Assembly: GCA_963719085.1 (NCBI GenBank)
Contig: CAVRAL010000001.1
Span: forward strand, 352,378 to 416,377
DNA from: a candidate division FCPU426 bacterium
GTDB taxonomy: Bacteria > Oederibacteriota > Muellerivitia > Muellerivitales > Muellerivitaceae
DNA: 64,000 nucleotides
Direction: 5' to 3'
Each line of letters opens with the position of its first letter. The first letter of the stretch is position 1. The notes below the pieces were generated by a model. It was given only the letters and a program-made list of their open reading frames with translations. It made no database searches and was not told where the DNA came from. This document shows positions 9,398-45,417 of the stretch, one piece after another. Both the position numbers and the translations under genes were made by a program.

Positions 9398-10726
9398 GTG
9401 AGCGACAACACTAAATTCGGCCCGCCCAAGGGGATGCGGGATTGGCTGCCGAAAGAAACCCTCCTGCGCCAAAAACTGATCCGCCTCATCGAAACTCATT
9501 ACCAACTTTACGGCTTTGAACCTATTGATACCCCGGTGATGGAAAATATCGAGGTGTTGCAAGGCAAGGGCGGCGGCGAGAACGAGAAGCTGATGTTTAA
9601 AGTTCTCAAGCGCGGTGAGGAGCTTGAAAAGGCCAAGGCATCGGGTGATTTAGCTGACATGGGCCTGCGTTTCGACATGACGGTTCCTTTGGCCCGCTAT
9701 TACGCCAATCACGCCAATGACCTTCCTAAGCCTTTCCGTTGTTCCCACATCGGCCCCGTCTGGCGGGCGGACCGGCCCCAGCGCGGGCGCTTCCGTGAAT
9801 TTTACCAATGCGACATCGACATCGTGGGCGGGGCTTCCGATTCCTACGAAGTGGAATTACTTTTGGCCACGGACCGGGTTTTGAAAGCCTTGGGCGTGGG
9901 GAAATTTAAAATTCGAATCAGCGACAAACAATTGCTCACCATGGTGCTTCGCCGCATTGGGACTCCGGTGGAAAAATTGGCGGGCGTGGCGGTGGCCATC
10001 GACAAGATGGACAAGCTTTCGTTCGACGACGTGAAAAAAGAAATCGCCGGTTTGGGCTTGGAGAGCGAAAATCTTGAAAAGATCGCGCTTTTCCTCAATA
10101 GCGCCAAGAGCGGCTTCCTTGATTTGACTTTATTTAAAGAAGTGAAAATCACCGAACTCGGCAAAAAGATCCAGTCCATCTGCGACCGGGTCAAGGCTGT
10201 CAATCCCGAAGCCAATGTGGTTTTTGATCCTTTGCTCGTCAGGGGATTTGACTATTACACCGGGCCGGTTTTTGAGATCAACGTGGAAGACAAGGACTTT
10301 ACCTTTTCGATCGGCGGCGGCGGCCGTTATGACGGACTCATTGAAAAATTGGGCGGCCCCAAAGATACCCCGGCGGTTGGCTTGTCCCTCGGTTTTGAGC
10401 GCATCCTGACCATTCTTTTAGAAAAAAACACCACGGGTCCCCAGGCGCTTCAATCCCGGGTTCTAATCGTGAACAACGGCCAAACTGAAAAGGACATCCT
10501 GGACCTGGCGGAGAAACTTCGCTCCGGGGGCCTTTCGGTGGAAACGGTTTTAGAAAGTAAAAAAATGGGCCAGCAGTTGGAAGCGGCCCAGAAGAACGGC
10601 GTGGAGTTCGCCGTGACTGATTTCAAACCCGGCGGCGAAACCTTCAAAGTGCGCCGCCTGTCCACCCGGCAGGACGCCGAAATGGGCCTGGAAGAGTTGA
10701 AAAAACAAGTTAGAAGTTTGAAGTGA
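9398..10726 (+). CDS. hisS: histidyl-tRNA synthetase
   Basis: GTG start; class II aaRS motifs (HIGPVWRADRPQRGRFREFYQCD, GGGGRYDGL) plus C-terminal anticodon-binding domain (so HisS, not HisZ). Confidence 0.85.
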   Translation: MSDNTKFGPPKGMRDWLPKETLLRQKLIRLIETHYQLYGFEPIDTPVMENIEVLQGKGGGENEKLMFKVLKRGEELEKAKASGDLADMGLRFDMTVPLARYYANHANDLPKPFRCSHIGPVWRADRPQRGRFREFYQCDIDIVGGASDSYEVELLLATDRVLKALGVGKFKIRISDKQLLTMVLRRIGTPVEKLAGVAVAIDKMDKLSFDDVKKEIAGLGLESENLEKIALFLNSAKSGFLDLTLFKEVKITELGKKIQSICDRVKAVNPEANVVFDPLLVRGFDYYTGPVFEINVEDKDFTFSIGGGGRYDGLIEKLGGPKDTPAVGLSLGFERILTILLEKNTTGPQALQSRVLIVNNGQTEKDILDLAEKLRSGGLSVETVLESKKMGQQLEAAQKNGVEFAVTDFKPGGETFKVRRLSTRQDAEMGLEELKKQVRSLK

Positions 10727-10865
10727 GCCGGGTCTTATTTTCCCGTCGCTGGCTCCGGAGCCCCGGCACACCCAGGGCGCGGTCTTCGACTCCTGGCCGA
10801 AGATCTGGGGGGGGTTAGAAGTGTTTTGAAAATGAAGGTTTGTGTTATTATACGGCTCCTCAAAA

Positions 10866-10889
10866 CCGGCCCTTTCGGGGCCTTTTTTA
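10866..10889 (+). terminator. intrinsic terminator after hisS
   Basis: CCGGCCCTTTCGGGGCC followed by TTTTTTATTT. Confidence 0.6.
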
Positions 10890-10896
10890 TTTGTCT

Positions 10897-10934
10897 CGCC
10901 TTCCTTGGCGCCTTGGCGTCTTGGCGGTGAAATT
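10897..10934 (+). repeat. family-A solo right arm, copy A3
   Basis: CGCCTTCCTTGGCGCCTTGGCGTCTTGGCGGTGAAA with no upstream partner; ends 20 nt before aspS GTG. Confidence 0.7.
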
Positions 10935-10953
10935 TAGGTAATAGGAGTTTTTC

Positions 10954-12744
10954 GTGGCGGAAATGCTCGGCGGCTGGAAAAGATCACACAAGTGCGGGGA
11001 CCTGCGGGCCTCCGATGTGGGCAAGACCGTGACCCTGATGGGCTGGGTGCATCACCGCCGCGACCATGGCGGCCTGGTATTCGTCGACCTGCGCGACCGT
11101 TACGGCGTGACCCAGATCGTGTTTGATCCCCAATTGGCCGACAAGGTCCATAAGCAATCGCATCTCATTCGCAACGAATGGGTTTTGGCCGTGAAAGGTG
11201 AAGTGACCAAGCGGCCTGAAGGCACCGTGAATCCGAAACTCGCCACCGGTGAGATCGAGATCCGCTGCAGTGAAGTGAAGGCCTTGAATCCATCCCAAAC
11301 CCCGGTGTTCCCGATTGAGGACGATGTGGATGTGGCTGAGGAAGTGCGTTTGGAATACCGCTACCTGGACCTGCGCCGGGAATCGATGAAAAACAAATTG
11401 GTCCTGCGGCATAAAACCGCCCAGGCGATCCGTTCCTATATGAACGCCAACGACTTTTTGGAAATTGAGACGCCCATCCTGATCAAAAACACCCCGGAAG
11501 GCGCCCGGGAGTATGTGGTGCCGAGCCGTATCTATCCCGGAAAGTTTTTCGTCTTGCCGCAGAGTCCTCAGTTGTTCAAGCAAATTTCCATGATCTCGGG
11601 GTTGGACCGCTATTACCAAATCGCCCGTTGTTTCCGAGACGAGGATCCCCGCGCTGACCGCCAACCCGAGTTCACCCAAGTCGATATCGAGATGTCCTTC
11701 ATCGACGAGGACGATATCTACGCCATCGGCGAGGGCGTCATGAAGACTGTCTTCAAAGAAATCCTGGACGTCGATTTGGTCACGCCTTTTCCCCACATTC
11801 CTTTCAACGAAGCCATGGAAAAATACGGCTCGGACAAGCCGGACCTGCGTTTTGACCTGCCCATGGTCAATGTGACGACGATCGCCAACCAAGCCGACTT
11901 TAAAGTTTTCAAGGATGTGATCGGCCGGGGCGGCGTGGTGAAGGCGCTCAACGCCAAGGGCTGCGCGGATTTTTCCCGCAAGGACCTGGAAGACCTGACC
12001 GGCTTCGTGGGCAAATACGGCGCCAAGGGGATGGCTTGGTTCAAGGTGAAGGATGGCAAGCTTGATTCCAACATCACCAAATATTTCAATGAGACAGTCC
12101 AAAAGGAATTGCTGACGGCTTTGAAGGGCGAGGAAGGGGACTTGTTCCTCTTTGGCGCGGACAATTTGGACGTGGTCAACGAATCCCTCGGCGCGCTCCG
12201 GGTGGAGATCGCCCGCCGCAAGGGCTTGATCGAAAAAGGACCCAAGTGGGCCTTTTGCTGGGTGGTGGATATTCCCATGTTCGGCACCGACGAAAAGGGA
12301 AGGCGCTTCGCGATGAACCATCCTTTTACCTCGCCCAAGGAAGCCGACGTGGCTTTGCTGGATACCGATCCGATGAAGGCCCTCTCCAAGGGTTATGACT
12401 TGGTTTTGAACGGCTTTGAGCTGGGCGGCGGCAGTATTCGTATTCATGACGTGGAACTGCAGTCCAAAATTTTCAAACTGCTTGAGATCAGCCCCGAGAA
12501 GGCCCAAGAGCGTTTCGGCTTCCTGTTGAAAGCCCTCAGCTATGGCGCCCCGCCGCACGGCGGAATGGCTTTCGGTTTGGACCGGGTGGTGATGCTTTTG
12601 ACCGGCGCGGCCAACATCCGGGAAGTCATCGCTTTCCCCAAAACCGCCAAGGCCATCGATTTGATGACGGGCTCGCCTTCCGAAATTGACCCGGACCTGA
12701 TCAAGGATCTCAAGATCAAGATCGAGCTTGAGGATTTGACTTAA
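10954..12744 (+). CDS. aspS: aspartyl-tRNA synthetase
   Basis: GTG start with SD AGGAG 6 nt upstream; N-terminal OB fold (HKCGDLRASDVGKTVTLMGWVHHRRDHGGLVFVDLRDRYG), class II core, GAD insertion, 596 aa. Confidence 0.9.
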   Translation: MAEMLGGWKRSHKCGDLRASDVGKTVTLMGWVHHRRDHGGLVFVDLRDRYGVTQIVFDPQLADKVHKQSHLIRNEWVLAVKGEVTKRPEGTVNPKLATGEIEIRCSEVKALNPSQTPVFPIEDDVDVAEEVRLEYRYLDLRRESMKNKLVLRHKTAQAIRSYMNANDFLEIETPILIKNTPEGAREYVVPSRIYPGKFFVLPQSPQLFKQISMISGLDRYYQIARCFRDEDPRADRQPEFTQVDIEMSFIDEDDIYAIGEGVMKTVFKEILDVDLVTPFPHIPFNEAMEKYGSDKPDLRFDLPMVNVTTIANQADFKVFKDVIGRGGVVKALNAKGCADFSRKDLEDLTGFVGKYGAKGMAWFKVKDGKLDSNITKYFNETVQKELLTALKGEEGDLFLFGADNLDVVNESLGALRVEIARRKGLIEKGPKWAFCWVVDIPMFGTDEKGRRFAMNHPFTSPKEADVALLDTDPMKALSKGYDLVLNGFELGGGSIRIHDVELQSKIFKLLEISPEKAQERFGFLLKALSYGAPPHGGMAFGLDRVVMLLTGAANIREVIAFPKTAKAIDLMTGSPSEIDPDLIKDLKIKIELEDLT

Positions 12745-12823
12745 GCGAAGAGCCGTTTAAACGGTTCGTTGATCAGCGCCGCTTAAAATCCCTTCAAAAT
12801 AAGGGCCTTTTCCGGGGTTCGGC

Positions 12824-12852
12824 TTGACGAATGAAAGTCCTGATTCGATAAT
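12824..12852 (+). promoter_or_regulatory. candidate sigma70 promoter TTGACG-17-GATAAT upstream of LysM gene
   Basis: Hexamers read in sequence; ~60 nt upstream of ATG 12912. Confidence 0.4.
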
Positions 12853-12911
12853 AAAACCAGGCAAACAAGCGGACTATTTTAAGAAGGCTTGAACTTCTAG
12901 GAGAGACCCAA

Positions 12912-13400
12912 ATGCTCAAATCGAAAGCTTTTTTCATGATCGCTTTAATCGCCACCCTCTGGACCATGGGTTGCGCCGGTAATAAGCGCATTGAGGGAAC
13001 TGACGCTCCTGCCGCGCCGGAAAGCGTTGATACCGCCGCCGCGCCCGCGCCTCCTGAAGCCCCGCCTCCTCCGGAGGCCCCCGCGCCGCCCGCTCCGACC
13101 CCGGTTGCCACCGCTGAGGGCGGCGCCGGTACCCGCTATATCGTGGTCAAGGGCGATACCCTTTGGGATATCTCCTATAAGTCCTTGGCTTATCACGACA
13201 GCTTTCAATGGCCCTTGATTTTCAAGGCCAACCGGGACCAGATTAAGGACCCGGACTTGATCTATCCCAAACAGGAATTTATGATCCGCCATGATTATTC
13301 GGATGTGGATGTGACGAAAGCGAAGAACGACGCTTCCGCGACGCCTAAATACGTGCCGCATACCCAGCCGCGGGAAACCCTGCCGGTTGATTACTTTTAA
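12912..13400 (+). CDS. secreted LysM-domain protein with Pro/Ala-rich linker
   Basis: Signal peptide, PAPPEAPPPPEAPAPPAPTP linker, LysM-like YIVVKGDTLWDIS...LIYPKQEFMI. Confidence 0.75.
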   Translation: MLKSKAFFMIALIATLWTMGCAGNKRIEGTDAPAAPESVDTAAAPAPPEAPPPPEAPAPPAPTPVATAEGGAGTRYIVVKGDTLWDISYKSLAYHDSFQWPLIFKANRDQIKDPDLIYPKQEFMIRHDYSDVDVTKAKNDASATPKYVPHTQPRETLPVDYF

Positions 13401-13444
13401 GTTCGGGAAGCGAAGTCCGGAAAAGCAGGATTTTAAAACCGAAA

Positions 13445-13489
13445 ACTCCCTTTTTCCCGGTTGGGAAGAGGGAGTTTTTTTTTAATGTT
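13445..13489 (+). terminator. intrinsic terminator after LysM gene
   Basis: AACTCCCTTTTTCCCGG-ttgg-GAAGAGGGAGTT then TTTTTTTTT. Confidence 0.55.
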
Positions 13490-13506
13490 TTTAATTGAAA
13501 CAATTT

Positions 13507-13686
13507 TACCGCCAAGGCGCCCCGCTGGCCCATTGGGGGCCAAACGAGCGGGACAGTGCCGCCCCCATTAATTTTTTTATGGAGGGGCGGCCGCCAAGTT
13601 CGCCAAGAACAGCGAAAGACGAAGGCTTTTAAAACATATTTGGATTTAGCCTTTCTTGGCGAACTTGGCGCCTTGGCGGTGAAAAA
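13507..13686 (+). repeat. family-A element, copy A4, with module-G insertion (13522-13587) in left arm
   Basis: TACCGCCAAGGCGCC[insert]GGCCGCCAAGTTCGCCAAGAACAGCGAAAGACGAAGGC ... GCCTTTCTTGGCGAACTTGGCGCCTTGGCGGTGAAAAAG; ends 39 nt before phoH TTG. Confidence 0.7.
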
Positions 13687-13724
13687 GTTTTTTTTGAGAT
13701 TTAAATCTATCAGGAGTTTTTGAA

Positions 13725-14714
13725 TTGACCCAAGCCGTCAGCCACCGCATCACTTTGGATGACCATCAGGAATGCGTCCGATTATTCGGGGAAAAAGACC
13801 ATACCCTGAAATTGATCCGTGATTCTTTCGCCGTGACCCTCATCGCCCGCGGGAACGAACTGTTGTTGTCCGGGGAACCGCTGGAAGTTTCCCACGCGTC
13901 CCAGGTGATTGAGCGCTTGCGGCTTCATTTAAAGAAAAACACCGAAGGCTACCTTTCGGGGGCGAAAGTCAGCCAGACCATCGCCGAAGCCAAGGGCCAA
14001 ACGCTGGAAGAACCGGAGCCGGCGGCGGCGCGGGAAACCATCCTCATCTCGTCTCGTAAAAAGCCCATCGCGGCGCGCACGGACAACCAGCAAAAATACG
14101 TGGACGCCATCCGAAGCCACGACATCGTCTTTGGCGTGGGGCCGGCGGGAACGGGAAAAACTTATTTGGCGATGGCCATGGCGGTCTCCGCCCTGCGGGA
14201 CGGGCTGGTGGAGCGCTTGATCCTGACCCGCCCGGCGGTGGAGGCGGGGGAAAAGCTCGGATTTTTGCCGGGGGACCTGCAGGATAAGGTGGATCCCTAT
14301 TTGCGTCCGCTTTATGACGCGCTTTATGACATGGTGGATTACGAAAAGTTACAGCGCCTGTTCCAACAGCGCGTGGTGGAAGTGGCGCCGCTGGCCTATA
14401 TGCGGGGACGGACCCTGTCGAACGCTTTTATTATTTTGGACGAGGCCCAGAACACCAGCCCCGAGCAAATGAAGATGTTTTTAACCCGCACCGGCGCCGG
14501 ATCCAAAGTGGTGGTGACCGGCGACGTGACCCAGGTGGACCTGCCCAGCGGCAAGGCCTCGGGCCTGGTCCACGCGCAGGAAGTCTTGAAGGGGCTGCCG
14601 GGCATCGGCGTGATTCATTTCCAACCGCAGGACGTGGTGCGGCACAAATTGGTCCAGACCATTGTGCGGGCTTACGACAGCCATGAAGCCGCCAAAGCCG
14701 AAAAACCGGTTTGA
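13725..14714 (+). CDS. phoH: PhoH-like ATPase (YbeZ)
   Basis: TTG start, SD AGGAG; Walker A GVGPAGTGKTYLAMA; conserved ybeZ-ybeY-corC gene order. Confidence 0.9.
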   Translation: MTQAVSHRITLDDHQECVRLFGEKDHTLKLIRDSFAVTLIARGNELLLSGEPLEVSHASQVIERLRLHLKKNTEGYLSGAKVSQTIAEAKGQTLEEPEPAAARETILISSRKKPIAARTDNQQKYVDAIRSHDIVFGVGPAGTGKTYLAMAMAVSALRDGLVERLILTRPAVEAGEKLGFLPGDLQDKVDPYLRPLYDALYDMVDYEKLQRLFQQRVVEVAPLAYMRGRTLSNAFIILDEAQNTSPEQMKMFLTRTGAGSKVVVTGDVTQVDLPSGKASGLVHAQEVLKGLPGIGVIHFQPQDVVRHKLVQTIVRAYDSHEAAKAEKPV

Positions 14715-15169
14715 CGATGAAACTATTGATCCGTGACGGACATGCCCGCAATCCGATTTCCCCAGTCTTGGCCCGCCGTTGGGCGGCGAAGGTCGTCCGC
14801 GCCGTCAAGGGCGCTTCCTTCGAGCGCCAATGCGAGCTTTCGGTGGTCTTTACCGGGGACGCCGAGGTGCGGAAGATGAACCGGCTTTACCGGAAAAAAG
14901 ATAAGACCACCGATGTGCTGGCTTTTCCCTTGCGGGAAGGAAAATTATTGCGCGCCGGGCTTCCGGGTTCGGGGGCTTTGGGGGATGTGATGATCAGCGT
15001 GCCTCAAACCCTGCGCCAGGCGAAAGCCGCGGGCAAGAAGCCCCGGGAAGAAATGGCGCTGCTGCTGACCCACGGAATTTTGCATCTTTTGGGATATGAC
15101 CACGTGACCCTTCGGCAGGAAAAGCGCATGTTTGGCTTGCAGAACCGTCTTTTAAAGAAATTGGTCTAA
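14711..15169 (+). CDS. ybeY: rRNA maturation endoribonuclease YbeY
   Basis: HGILHLLGYDH metal-binding motif; ATGA overlap with phoH. Confidence 0.85.
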   Translation: MTMKLLIRDGHARNPISPVLARRWAAKVVRAVKGASFERQCELSVVFTGDAEVRKMNRLYRKKDKTTDVLAFPLREGKLLRAGLPGSGALGDVMISVPQTLRQAKAAGKKPREEMALLLTHGILHLLGYDHVTLRQEKRMFGLQNRLLKKLV

Positions 15170-15178
15170 AGGGAAAAA

Positions 15179-16564
15179 TTGGATTACTACCTCGCCACCC
15201 ATTTAATCGTCCTGGCCGCCATGCTTTTGGTCTCCATGTTTTTTTCGGCGGTCGAGACAAGCCTTTTGTCCGCCCCCCGGAGCCTGATCCAGGCGCAATC
15301 CGAAAAGTCGGGGCTTTTGGGGATCGCTTTCCGGGAATGGGCCGAGCATCCCAACCGCATCCTGACCACGGTCTTAATCGGAAACAACTCGATCAACGTT
15401 TTAGCCACCATCCTGGCGGCCTATACGGCCGTTCACTTGGCGGACCTGAACCAGTGGAGCCAGGTGGTCACGGGAACCGTGACCTCCGTTTTCGTCACCT
15501 TCATCGTGATCGTTTTCGGGGAAATGATCCCCAAGATCACCGCCCGCAGTTTGGCGGCGCGCGTGGTGGTGTGGCTCATTATTCCCATCTACTTGATTGA
15601 CCGGGCGATCCGCCCCATCACGGTCGGCATGGCCCGTATTCTTATTTTCTTCGTTCCGAGCCTGGCCAACACCACGGTCTCCCAAGTGACGGAAGAGGAC
15701 ATCAAGCACTTGATCGAGGTGGGGCGCCAGGACGGAACCATCCGCGAGGATGAGCAGGACATGATCCACTCGGTCTTCAAATTCAGCGATACCACGGTGA
15801 ACCAGCTGATGATCCCGCGCACCGAGATGTTTTGCGTGGACCTGAAAATCGAGCTTAACGCGCTTTTGGACATGGCCATCCAGACCGGTTATTCCCGGGT
15901 GCCGGTTTATAAAGGCAACGTGGACAATATCATCGGCATCATCCACACCCGGGACCTGCTTTCCATTTGGCGCAACCAGGGGCTGATTGTGATCCAGGAT
16001 CTTTTGCGAAAACCCTATTTCGTGCCGGAGACCATGCGGGTGGACCGGCTTTTGCGGGAATTTCGCCGGGGCAAAATCCATATGGCCATCGTGGTGGATG
16101 AATACGGTGGCACCTCGGGCCTGGTGACCCTGGAGGATTTGGTCGAGGAAATCATCGGCGAGATAAGAAATGAGCACGAGCCCGAGGATAAGTCCATGGA
16201 GCGGCAGGAAGATGGATCCTATGTCATTGAGGCGGGCACGTCCTTGGACGAGATTAATGAAAGCCTGGGCACGCATCTCACCCCCCAGGGTGAAGTCACG
16301 ACCTTAGGCGGTTATTTGACCGAGCAAAACGGCAAGGTTCCGAAAAAGGGCCGGGTCTTGGACGAATACGAAATCACCTCCACTGTTTTGGAATCCGATG
16401 AGAAGAAAGTCATCAAGGTGAAGCTGGTGAAGAAGGACGTTCCTTATCCGCCCCAGGAAGCGGAACAAAAACCGGCGGCGCCCAAACCGCGTAAAAGGCG
16501 GGTTAAACAGCCGGCCCCGGCGCAAGAACAAGTGGCCGAGTCGGAAGCGCCGAAGGAAAAATAA
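15179..16564 (+). CDS. corC: CorC/HlyC family transporter (CNNM TM domain + CBS pair + CorC C-terminal), Lys/Pro-rich tail
   Basis: 4 TM DUF21 N-term, tandem CBS, transporter-associated C-domain. Confidence 0.85.
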   Translation: MDYYLATHLIVLAAMLLVSMFFSAVETSLLSAPRSLIQAQSEKSGLLGIAFREWAEHPNRILTTVLIGNNSINVLATILAAYTAVHLADLNQWSQVVTGTVTSVFVTFIVIVFGEMIPKITARSLAARVVVWLIIPIYLIDRAIRPITVGMARILIFFVPSLANTTVSQVTEEDIKHLIEVGRQDGTIREDEQDMIHSVFKFSDTTVNQLMIPRTEMFCVDLKIELNALLDMAIQTGYSRVPVYKGNVDNIIGIIHTRDLLSIWRNQGLIVIQDLLRKPYFVPETMRVDRLLREFRRGKIHMAIVVDEYGGTSGLVTLEDLVEEIIGEIRNEHEPEDKSMERQEDGSYVIEAGTSLDEINESLGTHLTPQGEVTTLGGYLTEQNGKVPKKGRVLDEYEITSTVLESDEKKVIKVKLVKKDVPYPPQEAEQKPAAPKPRKRRVKQPAPAQEQVAESEAPKEK

Positions 16565-16574
16565 AAAGTTTGAA

Positions 16575-16712
16575 CCACAGAGTACACAGAGTTACACGGA
16601 GTAAGGCGGCAGGCTGCATCAATTGAAGTTTGAACAAGTTTTTAACCAAGTGATTTATCTGTCATAAAAGGACTTTGTTTTACTCTGTGTAACTCTGCGT
16701 ACTCTGCGGTAA
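16575..16712 (+). repeat. inverted-repeat hairpin with tandem 9-mer arms (CACAGAGTA units), same architecture as family A, ending GCGGTAAA
   Basis: ACCACAGAGTACACAGAGTTACACGGAGTAAGG ... TTTACTCTGTGTAACTCTGCGTACTCTGCGGTAAA; followed by T-run; between corC and PHP gene. Confidence 0.7.
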
Positions 16713-16787
16713 ATGATCCGAGGTTTTTTTGAACTACTTAGACTGTCACAATCCCTCGCTAACGCGTGGGGCCCGTTTCACGGATAA

Positions 16788-17588
16788 ATGTTTTGCAGTT
16801 ATCTGCTGTTTTGGAAGGGTTTCGTGAATTTATTAGACTGTCATAATCATACCGCCGAATGGTCGGATGGGCGCCAATCCATTGAGCAGGTTTTGGAAAA
16901 GTCCAAAATCGAGAAGGTGCGGGTGGGGCTTTCGGACCACGCGGGGCTGGGGGAATATCTCAATTCCAACGACCGCTTGCTGGCTTACGCTGATTTTCTT
17001 TCCCAATATCCGGTGGCCCGGGGATTGGAAATGGATTTGGGTCGAAGCTTTTTAGTCCAGCCTGAAACCAGGGCCCGGTTTGATTATATGATCGGAAGCG
17101 TCCATGGCATGGAAGTGGCGGGGGTGAGGCTCGGTTTCAGTCCCTTGATTCAATTCATCAAAGGGGAAAAGCCGGACTACAATCCGCTGGAGCAAATCAA
17201 GGACCTGGATCTTTTTTTTAAAACCCACCTTCAAATTTTGACCCGGGAATACCAAACCCAAAAGTATGACATCCTGGGCCATTGCACCATGTTGCCGCCC
17301 CTGGCGCTCGGCAAGCCCGAGGATGTTTTCCCCGAATGGTGGGAAGACCAGTTGATCGCGCTTCTTTTAAAACAAGGCGTGGCCATGGAAATTTCCAACC
17401 GTTGGAAAACGCCTTACGACCGGTTGATGCAAAAAGGCGTGGCGGCGGGTTTAAAATTTTCCGTGGGCTCGGACGGCCATGATCCGGCCAAAACCTGCGT
17501 GCTGGACTATCCCAAACAAATGATGAGCCGTTTCAAACTTCCTGAGGCCCGGGTTTTTGACATTGCCCGTCCCCTCGAGGCGGCTTAA
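16788..17588 (+). CDS. PHP-family phosphoesterase, possibly histidinol-phosphatase HisK
   Basis: LLDCHNHTAEWSDG... PHP N-terminal His motif; 266 aa; true start may be GTG ~16824. Confidence 0.55.
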   Translation: MFCSYLLFWKGFVNLLDCHNHTAEWSDGRQSIEQVLEKSKIEKVRVGLSDHAGLGEYLNSNDRLLAYADFLSQYPVARGLEMDLGRSFLVQPETRARFDYMIGSVHGMEVAGVRLGFSPLIQFIKGEKPDYNPLEQIKDLDLFFKTHLQILTREYQTQKYDILGHCTMLPPLALGKPEDVFPEWWEDQLIALLLKQGVAMEISNRWKTPYDRLMQKGVAAGLKFSVGSDGHDPAKTCVLDYPKQMMSRFKLPEARVFDIARPLEAA

Positions 17589-37793: not shown

Positions 37794-38951
37794 TTATAAA
37801 GCCAATTCCGGGAAATAAAACCTCAAAATCTTCCGCCAATCCCAGCCTTTTTTGGCCAGCGCGAGGGCGCCGTCCTGGCAAAGGCCCACGCCGTGGCCTT
37901 GGCCCCGCCCCTCAAAATAATAAGTGTCCCCGGATCGCTTCCAAGTAAACCAAGCGCTGGGAAAAACCCGCCAGCCATTGTCCTTGCCGAATTGGGAAAT
38001 GAACTTTTGCGCGTTAATCCGCCTGTCCCGGGGGGGAGCGTCCGCGGCCGTGAAAATCGCCTCGAAGGTTTTATCGCGGCCGCCGGGGGTTTTTTCCAAG
38101 ACCCGCCAGGATAATAACTTCGTTCCCGGAGGCAAGCCGGCCGTTTCGACCAGGGCTTTTTCCACCTGGGGCGCGGGCGCGGAAGTTTTCCAACGATAAG
38201 ACGCCCCGCCTTGGCACAGCGTCTCGCCGTTGAGCTCATCCCGGGTCCGGGCAATGGGCTCGGACGCGCCGCCCCAAATGTCCCCGGCTGAATCCAGCGT
38301 CCCGCCGCAGTTTCGATGGAAATAATAATTGGGATGGGTTCCGGCGGCGGGAGCGGGAACCCCGGAGACCGTTTGGGCCACGTCGCGCCAATAGTCCATT
38401 CGTTGGGGTAGCCCCTCATATAAGAGGCAGTGGGCCAGGTCGCAGTAGTCATAACGTAAATGCCGCATGCGGTGGGTGAGGGCGTAGAGGCGCACCAACG
38501 CGGCGAGGGATTTGTCGTACTCGGGCCAGAGGCCATGGGGGTCGTCCGACTCCGCCGCGGACACGCAGGCCACGTAATCGTCCAGGCTGGGGTGGTTGAG
38601 GATTTGAAGTTCGGGTCCCGAAGCCTCGTTAAACAAGCGAATGGACAGGGTCCCGGGATAAACGCGGGTCATTTGGTTTACTTTAATTTTACAAAAACCG
38701 CCGACCCGGCCCCAAAGAGCCCCGGAACGGGCTTTGCCGTTGACCCACAAAAATCCACGTGATAATTTTACTTCGTCCCAAGGGCCCTGGCCCGAGGGGG
38801 TTTGAATCAAGATCGAGGCGGGGTTCAGTTTTTCCAGTATTCGGACCGAAAGGTCCGCGTCTTGCGCCGAGGCCTTGAGCGCCCAAGCGAAGACCGTGAG
38901 GAATCCTAAAAGCAGTTTCTTATTTTTAACTGTCAGTCTATTTAACCGCAT
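37794..38951 (-). CDS. SpoIID/LytB-domain protein (secreted)
   Basis: C-terminal GHGVGLCQDGALALAKKGW SpoIID signature; start at ATG (rc of 38949-38951) giving signal peptide MRLNRLTVKNKKLLLGFLTVFAWALKASA. Confidence 0.75.
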   Translation of the reverse strand: MRLNRLTVKNKKLLLGFLTVFAWALKASAQDADLSVRILEKLNPASILIQTPSGQGPWDEVKLSRGFLWVNGKARSGALWGRVGGFCKIKVNQMTRVYPGTLSIRLFNEASGPELQILNHPSLDDYVACVSAAESDDPHGLWPEYDKSLAALVRLYALTHRMRHLRYDYCDLAHCLLYEGLPQRMDYWRDVAQTVSGVPAPAAGTHPNYYFHRNCGGTLDSAGDIWGGASEPIARTRDELNGETLCQGGASYRWKTSAPAPQVEKALVETAGLPPGTKLLSWRVLEKTPGGRDKTFEAIFTAADAPPRDRRINAQKFISQFGKDNGWRVFPSAWFTWKRSGDTYYFEGRGQGHGVGLCQDGALALAKKGWDWRKILRFYFPELAL

Positions 38952-38979
38952 CCACGATATCTTACAGGAGATTTCCCCT

Positions 38980-41900
38980 ATGAAAAAGATTCTCGCTATC
39001 TGGGCCGCCATCGCCCTTCCGTTGGGCCTTGTTTTTCTCGCGGTGCGCTGGGCCAACCATCCCAACCTCGCGGCTTTTTTCCTTCATCCGGGCTTGTCTT
39101 TCTTTTTGGTTTTTGTTTTCGCGCTTTACTTGATCCGCCGATTTTTGCTGGTGAAGCCCGGTTTGTATGTCCGGGGGTTTGGAATTTGGCTGGCGGTGCG
39201 TTATTTCACCCAGTGTTTTTCCACGAACAACGTTCCCAGCCAAAATGACCTGGCTTTAGCCGCTTGGTCTTTTTACGCCGCCCTGGCGGGCGCCTCGCTT
39301 TTTTTCCTGGGAATGGAAGAGTTCGAGGGCCTGGCGTTGAAAGTTTTGAAACGTAAAAAACTTCCGGCCTTTCTGGGCGCGGTCCTACTGGGCCTCTTGG
39401 CGGCCTTGGTGTTTGGGGGCGCCAACGCCTCGGGCTATGGTTTGTCTTCCCGGATCTTGTTTCTTTTAGCCGGCGGTTTTTGCGTCCTGGGCGCTTTGAT
39501 CCGCGCCTATATTCTCAAGGCGGACCCGGAGTACCTCACCGGGTTTGTTTGGCTTTACCTGGCCCTGAAACTGAATACTTTATATTCGCCTGGTTTTGTT
39601 CCCTCGATTCATTTCCCCATGAACTGGCTTTTTAACGCGCATATCTTTTTTTCATTTTTGGTCTATGTCTTTTGGGAAAAACTCCTGCAGCCCAAGTCCA
39701 AGGCCCGGATTTTTATCGGCGCTTTCGCCGTCGCCGGTTTTCTTTTCACCTTTTTCCTGCAATCCACCCTTTGGACCTGCCAAATCCTGATCGTGGCGGG
39801 CTTGCTGATGTGGAATCTGGGCTGGGATAAAAAAACCGCCCAGCTTCCTTGGGTGGTGAAAGCGCGGGCCTGGGCTCAAAAGATTTTGGCCAACCCGAAA
39901 TTGAAAATGCTGGTCGACAAGTCCGGGAAAAAGGCCGCTTCGTTGGGGGGCCTTTTAGCCGCCTGGTCGAAAAAGCCGGTGGTGAAATGGTCGGCCGCGG
40001 GTTTGGCCGGGTTGGTGGTTTTGGCCTTGCTGGGCAATCTGGTTTATCAAATGTTGTCGACTTACGTGATCAGCTTTACCCCCGCGGGCACGTTGACTTC
40101 TGCCAGCACCGTGATCCGGGTGAAATTTTCCAATGACATTACCGTGGCGGGAACCCTGGACTCGGCTTTCCAAATAACGCCGCCGCTTCCCGGGACCACC
40201 CGTTTGGAAGACTCCAAAACCTTGGTTTACACCCCCGGGGCGCCTCTTTTACCGGCCACCACTTATCGGGTGAGGCTGGATACTTCCGAACTGCGGGCTA
40301 AATCCTTATTTCTCCAGGGAAGCGCTAAGACGGTTTTCGCCACCGAGCCCTTTCAAGTGGTCAGCAACCGGCTTTTCTATACCTACGATCTGGTCAAGGG
40401 AACCGAGAAGGAATTGGTGGGGGAATTGGAGTTTAATTACCCGGTGGAGCTCCAGCGCCTGAATCAGGCCTTGAGCGTGACCCGGGGGAACCAATCGCTG
40501 GCTTTTTCCTTGGAACCCGGAACCCTTCCTACGCGGTTTTTCTTTAAGGCCGGGGGGCTGACCCGTGATTTTGATCCCCAGGTCCTGACGGTCAAGATCA
40601 GCGGGGACCTTTCTTGCGTGGATTGCGGAAACTCCCTTGCCAAACCTTTCCAGACCACCCTGGTGCTGCCCGCCCGGCCCAAGATGCGGGTCAACCAGGT
40701 TCAACTCCATCATGAGCCGGGCAACACCCTGATCTCGATTCTTTTCACCCTGCCGGCTTCGGCCGCCGAAGTGAAGAACAACGTCACGATTACGCCCGCC
40801 GTGCCTTTCACGGTCCAGACCGAGTATTGCTACGCGGTCCTTCGGGCCGACTTCCAACCCAACGTGAGCTATCAAGTCAAAATCAGCAAGGGGCTCCGCG
40901 CCCAGTCGGGCGAGATTTTGGACAATGATTATTCCCAGGCCCTTCAACTGCAAGACGTCCAGCCTTATGTGCGTTTCGCCGACCCGGGCCGTTTGATCCC
41001 GCTGGCGGGCGGCAAGCGGGTCGCGGTGAAGACGATGAATTTGGACGCCTATTCGGTGCGGGTGGTAAAGGTATTCCGGAACAACCTGGTGGATTTCCTG
41101 AAACGGGTCCATACCTACAGCAATGAGGACTATAACGGCGGCGAGTCTTATTCCTACGTGGAAGGCGATACCGACAGCATCGGCTCCCAGGTTTGGAGCG
41201 GCAATGTGACGGTGGAAGGCGGACAAATTAATCAGGAAGTGGAAACCGACCTGGATTTTTCCAAATGGCAGTCCGCGCCCTATAAAGGGCTTTTCGCGGT
41301 TTATTTGAACGGCTCCGACGGCGGGGGACAAGACGCCCGTTGGTTCGCGGCCACGGACTTGGGGCTTTTGACCAAACGCTCCGGAAACGATTTGTGGGTG
41401 CAGGCGATTTCCATCTCCACCCTGGCTCCCGCGGCGGGCGCCCATCTGCAGTTGTTGTCCGACAATAACCAGGTGATCGCCGAGGCGGATACGGATTTGG
41501 ACGGCCGGGCTTGGTTCAAGGACATCAACAATAATCCTTATAAGTTCACCCCCTTTGTGGTGGTGGCCAGTTTGGGCGACGATTGGTCTTTCTTGTCGCT
41601 CAATGACTCGCCTTTGGATCAATCCCGTTTTGACATCGGCGGCGACCCTTTCAGCACCGAAGGCTGGGATTCTTTCGTGACGTCGGACCGGGGTTTGTAC
41701 CGTCCCGGCGACACGGCCCATTTCACCGCCATCGTGCGGCACGCGGACCTGAAAACGCCCGAAGCCTTGCCGGTCAATTTGGTGGTGACGGACGCGGCCG
41801 GGAATCCGGTTTCCAAATTGGTTTCCAAACTGCAAAAAGGCGGACTGACGACTTTTGACCTGCCCGTTCCCCTGGATCTCTCGACGGGGACGCTGAACGC

Positions 41901-44900
41901 CGCGCTCCAGCTTGAGAACGGCGTGCAGTTGGGTTCCACTTCCATTAAGGTCGAGGAATTTATCCCGGCCAAGATCAAGGTGCAGGTTTCCTCGCCCCAG
42001 AAGACGGCCAACGCGGGGGAACAGCTCAGCTTCCAGGTTCAAGCCCGCTATCTTTTCGGAGCCCCGGCGGCCAATTTACAGGTCCAGTCGGTGGTCCATT
42101 TGTCCGCCCAGCCCTTTACCAGTAAGGATTGGGCCAGCTATCAGTTCAGCGATTCCAGCCGGGTTTTCGACGGCGAGGATCTCCAGGTGCCCAATGGCCT
42201 GACCGATGACTCCGGAAACCAAACCGTTCAGCTTCCGGTCCCGATTTCCATGCTGCCTCCCTCGATGATGAAGGCTGTGGTCTATACCGAAGTGCTGGAC
42301 AACGGCGGCCGCGCGGTGGGCGCCAACGCGGTCATCAACGTCCATCGCTATCCTTATTACCTGGGGCTCAAGGCACTGCCGGGCAAGGAGGTGGGTCCGG
42401 GTACCAAGGTGAGGATGAAGTACGTGGCCATCACGCCTGATGGGAAGCCTACCACGGTGACCCAGGTCAACTTGATCGTCAAACGCAAGGTTTGGTATTC
42501 CATCTTCCGCGACAGCGGATGGTCGGGCTCGGGGACGGAGTCTTCTTATTACGAGGAAGTCATCCTGGGTAAACAAGTGGACATCCACGGCAAAGGCGGT
42601 TTTACCTTTACGCCCGATAAGCCGGGGGAATACACCGTGTATTTGGGCAATGAGGACTCCATGCGCAGCGCCTTGACGGTCGTCGTGTCGGGCCCGGGCG
42701 GCGCGCCGGCGGCCAACACAAGCTCCGACTTGGAGCTGCCGGGACGGTTGTCGCTGATTTTAAACCAGCCTTCTTATGCCGTGGGCGCCGTGCCCAGGGT
42801 TGAGGTGCGGGCACCTTTCGCCGGACGACTCATCCTGACCCTGGAACGGGAAAAGGTTTTTTACACCAAAAGTTTGGAAGTGCCCTCGGGCTTGAGCGTG
42901 GTGAGCCTGCCGCCCACGGATGAGAATGACCTGCCCAACGCGTATGTGGTGGGCCTGCTGGTGAGGAAGCCCGACGAGTCCATGCGCCGACTGCCCATGG
43001 CGTCGTTCGGCGTGGTTCCCTTGAACCTGGACGCTTCCACCCGGCAAATTGACCTGAAGTGGACCACGGCTGATTCGGTTAAGTCCAAAGACGGCATCGA
43101 TGTTCGTTTGGACACGGGCCATCCGGGCTCCCAGGTCGTGTTGTCGGCGGTGGACGAGGGAATCCTTCAGATCGTGTCCTTCGCCACTCCCGATCCGTTC
43201 AAATATTTCTACCGCAAACGCGGGATGACCACGTCCACCTACAGTCTTTTCGACCAAGTGCTGCCGAACCTGGGGCAAAAGCTGGCCGTGGGCGGCGACG
43301 AGGGCGAGGGCTTCAAGGCCCGCAACCTCAATCCAGTGGCGGCCAAACGGGTGAAGAGCTTCGCCCAATTCACCGGCATTTTGACCGCGGATGAGACGGG
43401 AACCATCACTTACCATTTCCCCACGAAAGAATTCCACGGGGAAGTGCGTTTGATGGCCTTGGCAGTGGACGGCGATAAATTCGGCGGTTCCTCCTTTAAG
43501 GTGCAGGTGGCCGACCCCGTGGTGGTGGAGCCTTCGTTCCCCCGGTTTTTGGCGCCCGGCGATAATTTTGACGTGCCCGTTTTGGTTTATAACCACGCCA
43601 AGCAGGCGGAGTCGGTGGCGGTGAAGCTTTCGCAGACCGGCCCCGTGGCGGTGGATGGCGGCGACCAGCAGTCGGTGGAACTGGAGCCGGGGGACCAAAA
43701 ACAGCTCATCTTCCACGCCAAGGCGCTGATGGCCGCGGGTGTGGCCGACTTTAAAGTCTCGGCCACCGACCAAAACGATCAAACCTATGACGTGGATACG
43801 GAACTTTCGGTGCGGCCGGGGAATCCCCTGACCACCGAGATCAAATACGGCCAGTTGAACGCCCAGGACAAGGTCAAATTGCCGGTTCCGGGCGGGTTTA
43901 TCCCCCAGGGTCAGCGGGTGCGGTTGGCGGTGTCGTCCAGTCCGCTGCTGACTTTCCTGGGCAGCCTGGATTACCTCATTAACTATCCTTACGGCTGCGC
44001 GGAGCAGATGACCTCGCAGGCCTTTCCCTTGCTTTATTTCAAGGACATGGGCCTTTTGACCGGACGGTTTGAGGACCGCGCCAACGCGGTGGATATGTTC
44101 ATCCAAGCGGCCGTGGATAATTTGTGCAAACAGCAATTGGAAGACGGGACCTTCGCCCTTTGGGCCGGGGAAAATGAGAGCGGCGGGGATTACCTGTCCA
44201 ACTATGTTTCCCATTTCCTGTTGGAAGCCAACCGGCTGGGATACAACGTGCCCCAGGACGCCTTGGACAAGGTGACCCAAAGGTTAGGGGCCATCAATGT
44301 TCAAGGGCAGGGGGACCGGCTTGACCGGCGCCAGCAAAATGTCGAGCTTCCGGACAGCGCCTACATCCTTTATTTAAGGACGCTGGCCGGGAAACCCGAT
44401 CTTCAGTCGATGGCGGCTTTCCGCGATGATTTGAAAAACCGCTCCTTGACCGACCGGTGTTTCTTGTCCTTGGCTTACTCCAAGATCGGGGACCGCGCCA
44501 CGGCCGCCGCGCTTTTGCCCCCGCATTACACGCCCACCAGCCTGGAGCGGGCGCTGGGCGGCGACTGGTTCTCGCCGAACCGGGAAAGGGCGATTTATCT
44601 TTACGCCTTGGCTGAGGCTTCGCCCCAGTCCCCGGAGATTCCGGTTTTAATCCAGGCCTTCGGCCAGGCGCTGAAGGACGGGGCTTTCCATTCGACCCAG
44701 GAAGACGCTTGGGCCTTCATGGCCATCGGTCAAGCGGTAAAGGCCAGCACCCAAGCCGAGCCATTGACCGGCGCTTGGTCGATTCCCGGCGGGACCGCGC
44801 ACGCCTTGGCGGGCGACAACGCCTCCGTGAAGGACACCGCCCTTTCGGGCAAGGAGGTCACCTTGAGTAATTTGGGCGACCAGCCTTTCTATTACAACTT

Positions 44901-45378
44901 GATGGGCGAAGGCACGCGGTTGGAGCAGGAAAAGGGGAGCGTGGCCAACGGTTTGAGCGTTGTCCGGGAATACCGGGATGAAAAAGGCGGCTTGGTCAAT
45001 TTAGGCTCGGTCACTCAGGGTGAACTGGTAGTGGTCACCTTGCGGATTCATTGCGCGAAGCCTTTGGACAACCTAGTGGTCGTGGACCTGCTTCCGGCCG
45101 GCTTGGAAGTGGATAATCCCCGGCTGTCCTCGCGCGGAAGCCTGGGTTTCGACCCCGAGTGCAGTTTCCAGCCTGTGTCGGAGGATTTCCGGGACGACCG
45201 GGTTCTTTTGTTCTCGAAGGACGTGGACGGGGATCTGAGCTTTTCCTACAGCGTGCGCGCGGTTACGCCGGGCCGGTTCCAGGTTCCGGGCGTGAGCGCG
45301 GAAGCCATGTATGATCCGGATATTTTCGGCCGGTCCGGTCCGGGCGACGAACTGATCGTCGCGCCCTTTAAGTTTTAA
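38980..45378 (+). CDS. alpha-2-macroglobulin family protein with N-terminal polytopic membrane domain
   Basis: ATG 38980 with SD AGGAG; ~11 predicted TM helices in first ~370 aa; then MG/Ig-like domains; thioester motif YGCAEQ (NYPYGCAEQMTSQAF); receptor-binding-like C-terminus; 2133 aa. Confidence 0.85.
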   Translation: MKKILAIWAAIALPLGLVFLAVRWANHPNLAAFFLHPGLSFFLVFVFALYLIRRFLLVKPGLYVRGFGIWLAVRYFTQCFSTNNVPSQNDLALAAWSFYAALAGASLFFLGMEEFEGLALKVLKRKKLPAFLGAVLLGLLAALVFGGANASGYGLSSRILFLLAGGFCVLGALIRAYILKADPEYLTGFVWLYLALKLNTLYSPGFVPSIHFPMNWLFNAHIFFSFLVYVFWEKLLQPKSKARIFIGAFAVAGFLFTFFLQSTLWTCQILIVAGLLMWNLGWDKKTAQLPWVVKARAWAQKILANPKLKMLVDKSGKKAASLGGLLAAWSKKPVVKWSAAGLAGLVVLALLGNLVYQMLSTYVISFTPAGTLTSASTVIRVKFSNDITVAGTLDSAFQITPPLPGTTRLEDSKTLVYTPGAPLLPATTYRVRLDTSELRAKSLFLQGSAKTVFATEPFQVVSNRLFYTYDLVKGTEKELVGELEFNYPVELQRLNQALSVTRGNQSLAFSLEPGTLPTRFFFKAGGLTRDFDPQVLTVKISGDLSCVDCGNSLAKPFQTTLVLPARPKMRVNQVQLHHEPGNTLISILFTLPASAAEVKNNVTITPAVPFTVQTEYCYAVLRADFQPNVSYQVKISKGLRAQSGEILDNDYSQALQLQDVQPYVRFADPGRLIPLAGGKRVAVKTMNLDAYSVRVVKVFRNNLVDFLKRVHTYSNEDYNGGESYSYVEGDTDSIGSQVWSGNVTVEGGQINQEVETDLDFSKWQSAPYKGLFAVYLNGSDGGGQDARWFAATDLGLLTKRSGNDLWVQAISISTLAPAAGAHLQLLSDNNQVIAEADTDLDGRAWFKDINNNPYKFTPFVVVASLGDDWSFLSLNDSPLDQSRFDIGGDPFSTEGWDSFVTSDRGLYRPGDTAHFTAIVRHADLKTPEALPVNLVVTDAAGNPVSKLVSKLQKGGLTTFDLPVPLDLSTGTLNAALQLENGVQLGSTSIKVEEFIPAKIKVQVSSPQKTANAGEQLSFQVQARYLFGAPAANLQVQSVVHLSAQPFTSKDWASYQFSDSSRVFDGEDLQVPNGLTDDSGNQTVQLPVPISMLPPSMMKAVVYTEVLDNGGRAVGANAVINVHRYPYYLGLKALPGKEVGPGTKVRMKYVAITPDGKPTTVTQVNLIVKRKVWYSIFRDSGWSGSGTESSYYEEVILGKQVDIHGKGGFTFTPDKPGEYTVYLGNEDSMRSALTVVVSGPGGAPAANTSSDLELPGRLSLILNQPSYAVGAVPRVEVRAPFAGRLILTLEREKVFYTKSLEVPSGLSVVSLPPTDENDLPNAYVVGLLVRKPDESMRRLPMASFGVVPLNLDASTRQIDLKWTTADSVKSKDGIDVRLDTGHPGSQVVLSAVDEGILQIVSFATPDPFKYFYRKRGMTTSTYSLFDQVLPNLGQKLAVGGDEGEGFKARNLNPVAAKRVKSFAQFTGILTADETGTITYHFPTKEFHGEVRLMALAVDGDKFGGSSFKVQVADPVVVEPSFPRFLAPGDNFDVPVLVYNHAKQAESVAVKLSQTGPVAVDGGDQQSVELEPGDQKQLIFHAKALMAAGVADFKVSATDQNDQTYDVDTELSVRPGNPLTTEIKYGQLNAQDKVKLPVPGGFIPQGQRVRLAVSSSPLLTFLGSLDYLINYPYGCAEQMTSQAFPLLYFKDMGLLTGRFEDRANAVDMFIQAAVDNLCKQQLEDGTFALWAGENESGGDYLSNYVSHFLLEANRLGYNVPQDALDKVTQRLGAINVQGQGDRLDRRQQNVELPDSAYILYLRTLAGKPDLQSMAAFRDDLKNRSLTDRCFLSLAYSKIGDRATAAALLPPHYTPTSLERALGGDWFSPNRERAIYLYALAEASPQSPEIPVLIQAFGQALKDGAFHSTQEDAWAFMAIGQAVKASTQAEPLTGAWSIPGGTAHALAGDNASVKDTALSGKEVTLSNLGDQPFYYNLMGEGTRLEQEKGSVANGLSVVREYRDEKGGLVNLGSVTQGELVVVTLRIHCAKPLDNLVVVDLLPAGLEVDNPRLSSRGSLGFDPECSFQPVSEDFRDDRVLLFSKDVDGDLSFSYSVRAVTPGRFQVPGVSAEAMYDPDIFGRSGPGDELIVAPFKF

Positions 45379-45387
45379 GCCAAGCCC

Positions 45388-45417
45388 GCCCCGGTTTTGA
45401 AGCCGGGGCGGGCGATC
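45388..45417 (+). other. perfect 11-bp GC hairpin between A2M gene and pbpC (no U-tract)
   Basis: GCCCGCCCCGG-ttttgaag-CCGGGGCGGGC. Confidence 0.5.

Follow-up and report, generated by a model that had tools for sequence, protein, structure and literature searches.

A polytopic N-terminal membrane domain on a PBP1C-linked alpha-2-macroglobulin of candidate division FCPU426

Current thinking has bacterial alpha-2-macroglobulins (A2Ms) guarding the periplasm jointly with PBP1C, a model that includes the way in which they are positioned at the inner membrane. How might such a protein be held there when it carries, in the same polypeptide, a membrane domain far larger than any anchor requires? The question is raised by a gene in a 64,000-nucleotide stretch of a candidate division FCPU426 genome (assembly GCA_963719085.1, contig CAVRAL010000001.1, positions 352,378 to 416,377; hereafter the window), in which a first-pass annotation noticed an A2M preceded, without interruption of the reading frame, by about 11 transmembrane (TM) helices. 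Our analysis shows that the protein is real, conserved and unannotated, that its N-terminal membrane domain (N-domain) falls in no described family, and that the likely mechanism, anchoring, is a conservative one. We consider it reasonably probable that this is a genuine type I, PBP1C-linked A2M in which the N-domain serves as a lineage-specific, repeat-expanded polytopic anchor or scaffold, replacing the lipid or single-helix anchor of other A2Ms. Coordinates of the features discussed are collected in Table 1.

Continuity and conservation of the fused gene

An open reading frame (ORF) scan with translation showed that the frame on the forward strand is open from 38875 to 45378 without a stop, with its first ATG at 38980 preceded by AGGAG. 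The continuous ORF and the roughly 11 N-terminal helices of the first-pass annotation are thereby borne out, the latter also by hydropathy and by the distribution of charges; the single uninterrupted frame stands, and only the length of 2133 amino acids needs correcting, to 2132, the higher figure having included the stop codon. A protein identical to the product (P0001) is recorded on an NCBI contig of 1.44 Mb. An independent assembly, that of run ERR11630394 in Logan (locus L001), matches the window base for base across 15,927 bp.

About ten FCPU426 relatives carry the same in-frame fusion of membrane domain and A2M, mostly with 15 helices, which settles in favor of a conserved fusion the comparison with orthologues that had been left for later. 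A scan of GTDB species genomes placed most of them in metagenome-assembled genomes (MAGs) labeled 'candidate division FCPU426' (loci L002–L006, with L008 and L010 as fragments), one further fused member (L011) came from scanning metagenomes with the N-domain profile, and the set is completed by a fragment (P0079). The five full-length relatives (P0002–P0006) are 58–62% identical to the window protein by BLASTP and have longer N-terminal hydrophobic regions than it does, of 504–522 residues.

The N-domain contained no stop codon in any of the six loci translated. Nei–Gojobori dN/dS values for four pairs (L005/L006, L003/L005, L003/L006 and L002/L004) were 0.16–0.23 in the N-domain and 0.09–0.13 in the A2M body, and ratios of 0.16–0.23 imply that the N-domain is translated and selected. 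On these estimates it is under purifying selection, about twice as relaxed as that on the A2M body. Amino-acid identity is 25–29% in the N-domain and about 63–66% in the body.

These data bear directly on the possibility that the fusion is false, a separate membrane-protein gene having been joined to the A2M by a frameshift or an error of assembly, or that an internal start yields a protein with TM11 only. A start at Met310, which lies in the cytoplasmic linker, would indeed produce a conventional signal-anchor protein, but that residue is not conserved, and an internal-start check found no Shine-Dalgarno-like sequence before any internal Met; with two base-identical assemblies, a frame kept without a stop in at least ten independent relatives, dN/dS well below 1 across the N-domain and no stand-alone homologue among 1.84e9 representatives, this explanation is highly improbable, and we reject a sequencing or assembly artefact as the source of the fusion. 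A scan of the A2M gene for promoters and terminators returned matches at chance level only.

The gene of one relative ends early. In L005 (CAWKAR010000025.1), the A2M gene at 10001-16971 has a stop at codon 1984 (P0006 is 1987 aa), and similarity runs on beyond it; the likely cause is a frameshift or a fault in the assembly, failing which the gene would be a pseudogene.

Topology and repeat architecture of the membrane domain

Eleven hydrophobic helices were found inside residues 1–361 by Kyte–Doolittle hydropathy and by a Hessa-type insertion scale (with loop charges counted alongside), and the helices of an AlphaFold model agree with them. Two of these, TM3 (61–77) and TM7 (185–201), are marginal in hydrophobicity, and leaving the marginal helices out would break the positive-inside charge pattern: an 11-helix model that runs from an inside N-terminus to an outside C-terminus places 26 lysines and arginines on cytoplasmic loops versus 2 on periplasmic loops. 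Nor is the hydrophobicity of this region a matter of chance, because the A2M body has no comparably hydrophobic stretch; at the level typical of the N-domain, 19-residue segments numbered 11 in the N-domain and 0 in the 1767-residue remainder. Sequence analysis thus confirms, as a prediction, that residues 1–365 form about 11 TM helices with the N-terminus inside and the C-terminus outside.

Inspection by eye found no lipobox in the N-terminal 365 residues, where the only cysteines (C79, C168 and C267) stand in the contexts QCF, FCV and TCQ. The cytoplasmic linker that precedes the last helix contained no strongly amphipathic helix, in that no 18-residue segment had a hydrophobic moment >0.45. 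Directly after the anchor helix, all relatives have the motif [IV]SFTP followed by an Ig-like domain.

The helices upstream of the linker are arranged in repeats. In the relatives, two adjacent four-helix units, which we call module A and module B, are homologous (hhalign probability 99%, E 5.8e-18), and their hidden Markov models (HMMs) cross-match reciprocally. Each unit follows the pattern R-x-x-x-L-K-x-P, helix a, periplasmic loop, W-x-x-x-x-H...F-W-E-[KR] in helix b, helix c and helix d. When the window sequence is kept out of its construction, the module-B HMM still matches TM7–10 of the window protein, and a weaker profile similarity suggests that TM3–6 are probably an older, divergent copy of the module (Table 1). 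The general layout is a two-helix leader, a series of four-helix modules (two in the window protein, three in relatives), a basic linker and an anchor helix, giving 11 or 15 helices; because the count is always odd, the A2M always lies outside.

The window protein has one four-helix module fewer than every other FCPU426 member. A MAFFT alignment set its helix a against module A and its helices b–d against module B, a pattern consistent with one repeat having been removed when copies recombined, the alignment being ambiguous at this point. No further module copies were found elsewhere in the window or in all loci, the best other match having E 0.1. That match was to a 464-codon stop-to-stop frame at about 15170-16560 on the forward strand of the window, where the weak similarity to the N-domain profile (domain iE 0.018) is not significant.

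Fifteen positions were invariant in eight N-domain sequences: K3, W8, W24, N26, H27, P28, R53, W96, L110, R175, W232, E233, L235, W265 and W278. H27 is replaced by Y in L011. The invariant residues are mostly tryptophans. The conserved charged residues among them, the arginines R53 and R175, the lysine K3 and the glutamate E233, all sit where helices end, at the membrane interface. Within the membrane, H221 alone among polar residues is nearly conserved, and at the corresponding site of the relatives' module A, P0003 and P0005 have R or Q.

Searches for relatives of the domain itself were largely empty. Pfam and NCBIfam gave no match to residues 1–365, and Pfam searches with eight N-domains at E<=10 gave nothing consistent, just three unrelated single-member matches with E>=0.16. 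Across 1.84 billion representatives, exhaustive searching with phmmer returned only three N-domain matches: a fused A2M fragment (P0079, 910 aa), a 301-aa protein on a 1131-bp contig (P0080) and a short N-terminal fragment of 151 aa (P0081). By these searches the N-domain is an orphan, not found as a demonstrably separate gene, and our literature searches turned up no account of a polytopic A2M. Whatever its function, it represents a new orphan domain family that would be worth adding to domain databases.

Relation to known A2Ms and the role of the membrane domain

The remainder of the protein is a conventional A2M. As the first-pass annotation had it, the canonical array of macroglobulin (MG) domains and the YGCAEQ thioester follow the membrane region: the Pfam domains begin after it, at residue 363, with bMG3, MG2, bMG5, A2M and bMG10 all scoring above Pfam cutoffs, and the thioester motif is invariant in six orthologues. 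Residues 627–2125 align to positions 126–1642 of the Salmonella SaA2M chain (4u48; E 5.5e-103), and the alignment to E. coli YfhM (4rtd; E 1.2e-100) likewise spans about 1500 residues. Judged from its sequence, the window A2M has every testable type I feature except the lipoprotein signal. We considered a type II A2M (MagD/YfaS) and rejected it, the protein having the CxEQ thioester and its gene neighboring a SpoIID-like gene and pbpC, not mag genes.

Alignments to the solved A2Ms start only at residue 625–627 of the window protein. The roughly 260 residues between the anchor helix and this YfhM/SaA2M-like part (366–625; 40075-40854), of which only the first ~75 are recognized as a domain (Big_5), may be an additional Ig-like stalk specific to this subfamily.

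The window protein shares the MG array, the bait-region domain, the CxEQ thioester and bMG10 with E. coli YfhM/ECAM (4rtd, 4ziq, 5a42) and Salmonella SaA2M (4u48); as for YfhM, its gene lies directly upstream of pbpC, and the protein would be expected at the inner membrane, facing the periplasm. In YfhM the signal peptide is cleaved and a lipobox is present (PMC3328433), whereas the window protein lacks a lipobox and has instead the 11-helix N-domain, the basic cytoplasmic linker and the ~260 extra residues after the anchor. The 72 other A2M homologues compared (P0007–P0078) each have 0–1 hydrophobic segment at the N-terminus, which agrees with the first-pass statement that a polytopic anchor is unusual. 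The companion statement, that bacterial A2Ms are normally lipoproteins, holds in part: lipobox types do exist among the 72 (e.g., P0007, LINSCG), but so do types with a cleavable signal peptide or a single-helix anchor, and since other homologues use these, a lipobox is typical of enterobacterial members without being a defining trait. A lipoprotein signal in place of the membrane domain was found in none of the orthologous clade, only in more distant A2Ms.

Closer in kind are the single-helix-anchored A2Ms (P0008, P0056, P0061 and P0065), which likewise have an uncleaved N-terminal helix instead of a lipid. TM11 of the window protein, with its basic cytoplasmic flank, resembles their signal anchor; unlike these one-segment proteins, it has ten more helices upstream, drawn from repeated four-helix modules. 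In Pseudomonas, membrane association of the type II A2M MagD needs the TM protein MagB (PMC5764988). Type II A2Ms (which also include E. coli YfaS) thus resemble the window protein in attaching to the inner membrane via protein TM segments and not via lipid. MagD, however, has no thioester, belongs to a six-gene mag operon and relies on a helix in a separate protein, whereas the window A2M has a thioester, a pbpC partner gene and a polytopic domain in the same polypeptide. Beside the lipid anchor of E. coli and MagB of Pseudomonas, a large polytopic domain in the same polypeptide would be a third solution to the positioning of A2Ms.

This solution occurs in the uncultured phylum FCPU426 and has a smaller counterpart in Spirochaetota, where L007 and the Brevinematales locus L009 encode five-helix A2Ms (four TM helices, a basic linker and an anchor helix). 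They belong to the same A2M subfamily, with 37–39% identity over the body, and share the stretches used for the scan, FY[TN]YD[LM][VI]K and TEKEL[VM]GE. The layout is shared as well, with helices in even number, then the basic linker, the anchor helix and an Ig-like domain, and L009 has PBP1C and SpoIID-like genes adjacent. They differ in having only four helices before the linker, and homology of this four-helix region to the FCPU426 module is not demonstrable (hhalign probability about 1%); the linker and anchor are weakly similar to their FCPU426 counterparts (hhalign E 1.9e-4).

In the arrangement that we propose, the chain would start in the cytoplasm, cross the membrane 10 times through the two-helix leader and two four-helix modules, come back into the cytoplasm for some 55 residues of lysine-rich linker and cross again as TM11. 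The periplasm, at the outer face of the cytoplasmic membrane, would then house the Ig-like stalk together with all of the MG, bait and thioester machinery, near PBP1C and the SpoIID-family glycan-strand enzyme. By analogy with YfhM and Salmonella A2M, a protease cutting the bait would cause the thioester to react and would be covalently trapped. The N-domain itself would have grown by tandem duplication of the four-helix unit.

We prefer an anchor or scaffold because the number of modules varies, conservation is of the interface type and the domain evolves faster than the A2M body, and also because it matches no family and occurs on A2Ms exclusively. A helical anchor is plausible since single-helix anchors (P0008, P0056 and P0061) are already a common alternative to the lipobox. 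What the data show is the continuity of the gene, the conserved fusion, the predicted topology, the repeats, the purifying selection and the lack of homologues elsewhere; that the domain anchors or scaffolds, and that it touches PBP1C or the SpoIID-like protein, we infer. The N-domain is probably not a transporter, enzyme or signaling module, as far as its sequence tells, and the transporter, flippase or sensor module suggested in the first-pass annotation finds no support in the family searches of the eight N-domains. If it is an anchor only, it offers a clear case of a membrane domain growing by tandem four-helix duplication.

Several observations weigh against so simple a role. One helix is enough to anchor a protein, yet ten extra helices have been kept, at a dN/dS of about 0.2, along with the basic linker, which implies some further constraint. 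The motifs W-x-N-H-P and, in each module, W-x-x-x-x-H...F-W-E-K, together with the basic linker, could mark a binding or functional site. The AlphaFold models are of low confidence, with a pLDDT of 51.7 for the 11-TM domain of the window protein and 52.9 for the P0004-type 15-TM domain, and Foldseek searches of these poor models against the Protein Data Bank (PDB) gave no match at E<=0.001 and best TM-scores of about 0.2–0.35. Because both models are too poor, a likeness to a known transporter or enzyme fold may still lie behind them. For an anchor or scaffold with an extra role, the most plausible such role would be to associate laterally with partners in the membrane, among them possibly the PBP1C TM helix.

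The N-domain might instead be an active module, one that acts much like a transporter or flippase, binds lipid-linked precursors or relays a signal through the membrane, and it would then couple the trap, or PBP1C and the SpoIID-like protein, to the membrane or cytoplasm. We judge this unlikely, if worth weighing. Purifying selection, the W/H/E motifs recurring in each module, the NHP loop motif, a basic linker conserved also in the Spirochaetota versions, a conserved neighborhood with two peptidoglycan enzymes and the unreliability of fold comparison with low-pLDDT models would all suit it. On the other hand, no member has a Pfam or NCBIfam match even at E<=10, and the module number (two or three, with a four-helix form in Spirochaetota) varies in a way unusual for a fixed fold devoted to transport or catalysis. 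No invariant charged residue lies inside the membrane, histidines are replaced in some members (H27 in L011, the module A equivalent of H221 in P0003 and P0005), and the domain evolves faster than the A2M body.

A related proposal, which we regard as doubtful, is that the four-helix unit with its W...H...F-W-E-K pattern, together with the linker, is a new functional membrane module that organizes an A2M–PBP1C–SpoIID envelope-repair complex by intramembrane contacts, relays the state of the trap or binds lipid-linked precursors. If true, the protein would be the first A2M with a physical connection through the cytoplasmic membrane.

Quite unlikely, in our estimation, is a narrower form of the scaffold reading, in which the N-domain is a dedicated assembly platform, making intramembrane contacts with the TM helix of PBP1C, and possibly with other envelope proteins, to co-localize the trap with repair enzymes. 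The strict adjacency of the A2M, PBP1C and SpoIID-like genes in FCPU426 and Brevinematales, the single N-terminal TM helix of PBP1C, and the cooperation already proposed for A2M and PBP1C (PMC3328433, PMC5764988) point in this direction, as does the need of MagD for MagB, which shows that partner-mediated membrane complexes exist in the A2M family (PMC5764988). A2M–PBP1C pairs elsewhere, however, work without such a domain. Should the N-domain do more than anchor, it would provide a direct handle on the question of a physical complex between A2M, PBP1C and cell-wall hydrolases.

The genes around the A2M

Table 1 Features of the A2M locus in the window, with the evidence for each.
Feature	Residues	Position in window	Strand	Basis
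Whole gene: polytopic membrane domain + thioester A2M, 2132 aa	1–2132	38980..45378	+	Continuous frame, ATG after AGGAG, identical protein P0001
TM1–TM2 leader with periplasmic loop motif W-x-N-H-P (residues 24–28)	1–58	38980..39153	+	Hydropathy, insertion scale
TM3–TM6, probably divergent first four-helix module	59–179	39154..39516	+	hhalign versus module B, probability 74%, E 2.8e-5
TM7–TM10, clear four-helix module; W216, H221, F-W-E-K-L (231–235) at cytoplasmic end of TM8	180–282	39517..39825	+	Module-B HMM, iE 6.6e-11
Lysine-rich cytoplasmic linker, predicted helical	283–338	39826..39993	+	13 K+R in loop 279–338; model helices 290–303, 306–330
TM11, in-to-out anchor helix	339–361	39994..40062	+	Hydropathy, insertion scale, AlphaFold-model helix
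Big_5 Ig-like domain	363–438	40066..40293	+	Pfam PF13205, 35.7 bits
bMG3, MG2, bMG5 macroglobulin domains	791–1114	41350..42321	+	Pfam, 76.2, 67.2, 77.7 bits
Bait-region domain A2M_BRD (1258–1398) and A2M domain (1464–1550)	1258–1550	42751..43629	+	PF07703, 78.4 bits; PF00207, 36.7 bits
Thioester motif Y-P-Y-G-C-A-E-Q	1669–1676	43984..44007	+	Read from translation
bMG10 C-terminal domain	1991–2114	44950..45321	+	Pfam PF17973, 90.5 bits
PBP1C (pbpC), 790 aa, single N-terminal TM helix		45474..47846	+	TIGR02073, 636.5 bits (cutoff 494.2); Pfam Transgly, Transpeptidase, BiPBP_C
SpoIID-family periplasmic protein, 385 aa, divergent; start 28 bp from A2M start		37794..38951	-	Pfam, motif, synteny
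PMT_2 (GT-C glycosyltransferase) domain + C-terminal TPR repeats, 703 aa		35587-37698	+	Upstream of A2M locus

The pairing of the A2M with PBP1C, already noted in the first-pass annotation, is upheld by the gene directly downstream (Table 1), and pbpC also lies downstream of the A2M gene in L002–L006 and L009. The neighbor on the other side extends this pair. Its product scores 20.8 bits against Pfam SpoIID (cutoff 23), and the orthologues score 41–71 bits; a C-terminal GHGVG motif aligns to the SpoIID structure 4rwr, and the N-terminus is signal-peptide-like. The gene adjoins the polytopic A2M in all FCPU426 loci tested, divergent and upstream (e.g., L002 8740-9900 and L011 4602-5711), and its counterpart in Brevinematales L009 (12709-13812) comes after PBP1C, with both genes on one strand. 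The synteny in FCPU426 and Brevinematales therefore indicates a SpoIID-like, A2M and PBP1C triad conserved across two phyla, which suggests from gene order that the three genes form an envelope module. Such a triad fits the published idea of joint periplasmic defense and wall repair by A2M and PBP1C (PMC3328433, PMC5764988), and it links a SpoIID-family glycan-strand enzyme to the A2M–PBP1C pair.

Further upstream, we considered the PMT_2/TPR glycosyltransferase as a member of the system and rejected it; it is not syntenic with the A2M in relatives and is probably unrelated.

The spacing of the A2M and PBP1C genes differs in one relative. At 16862-21451 in L002, about 4.6 kb with four ORFs (187, 231, 323 and 313 aa) separate two genes that are adjacent in the other loci. 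In the window, the interval between the A2M stop and pbpC contains, a few bases past the stop, a perfect 11-bp GC-rich inverted repeat (gcccgccccgg / ccggggcgggc, with an 8-nt loop) at 45384-45413. No T-run follows it, and it could be an RNA stabilizer or a partial terminator between the two genes.

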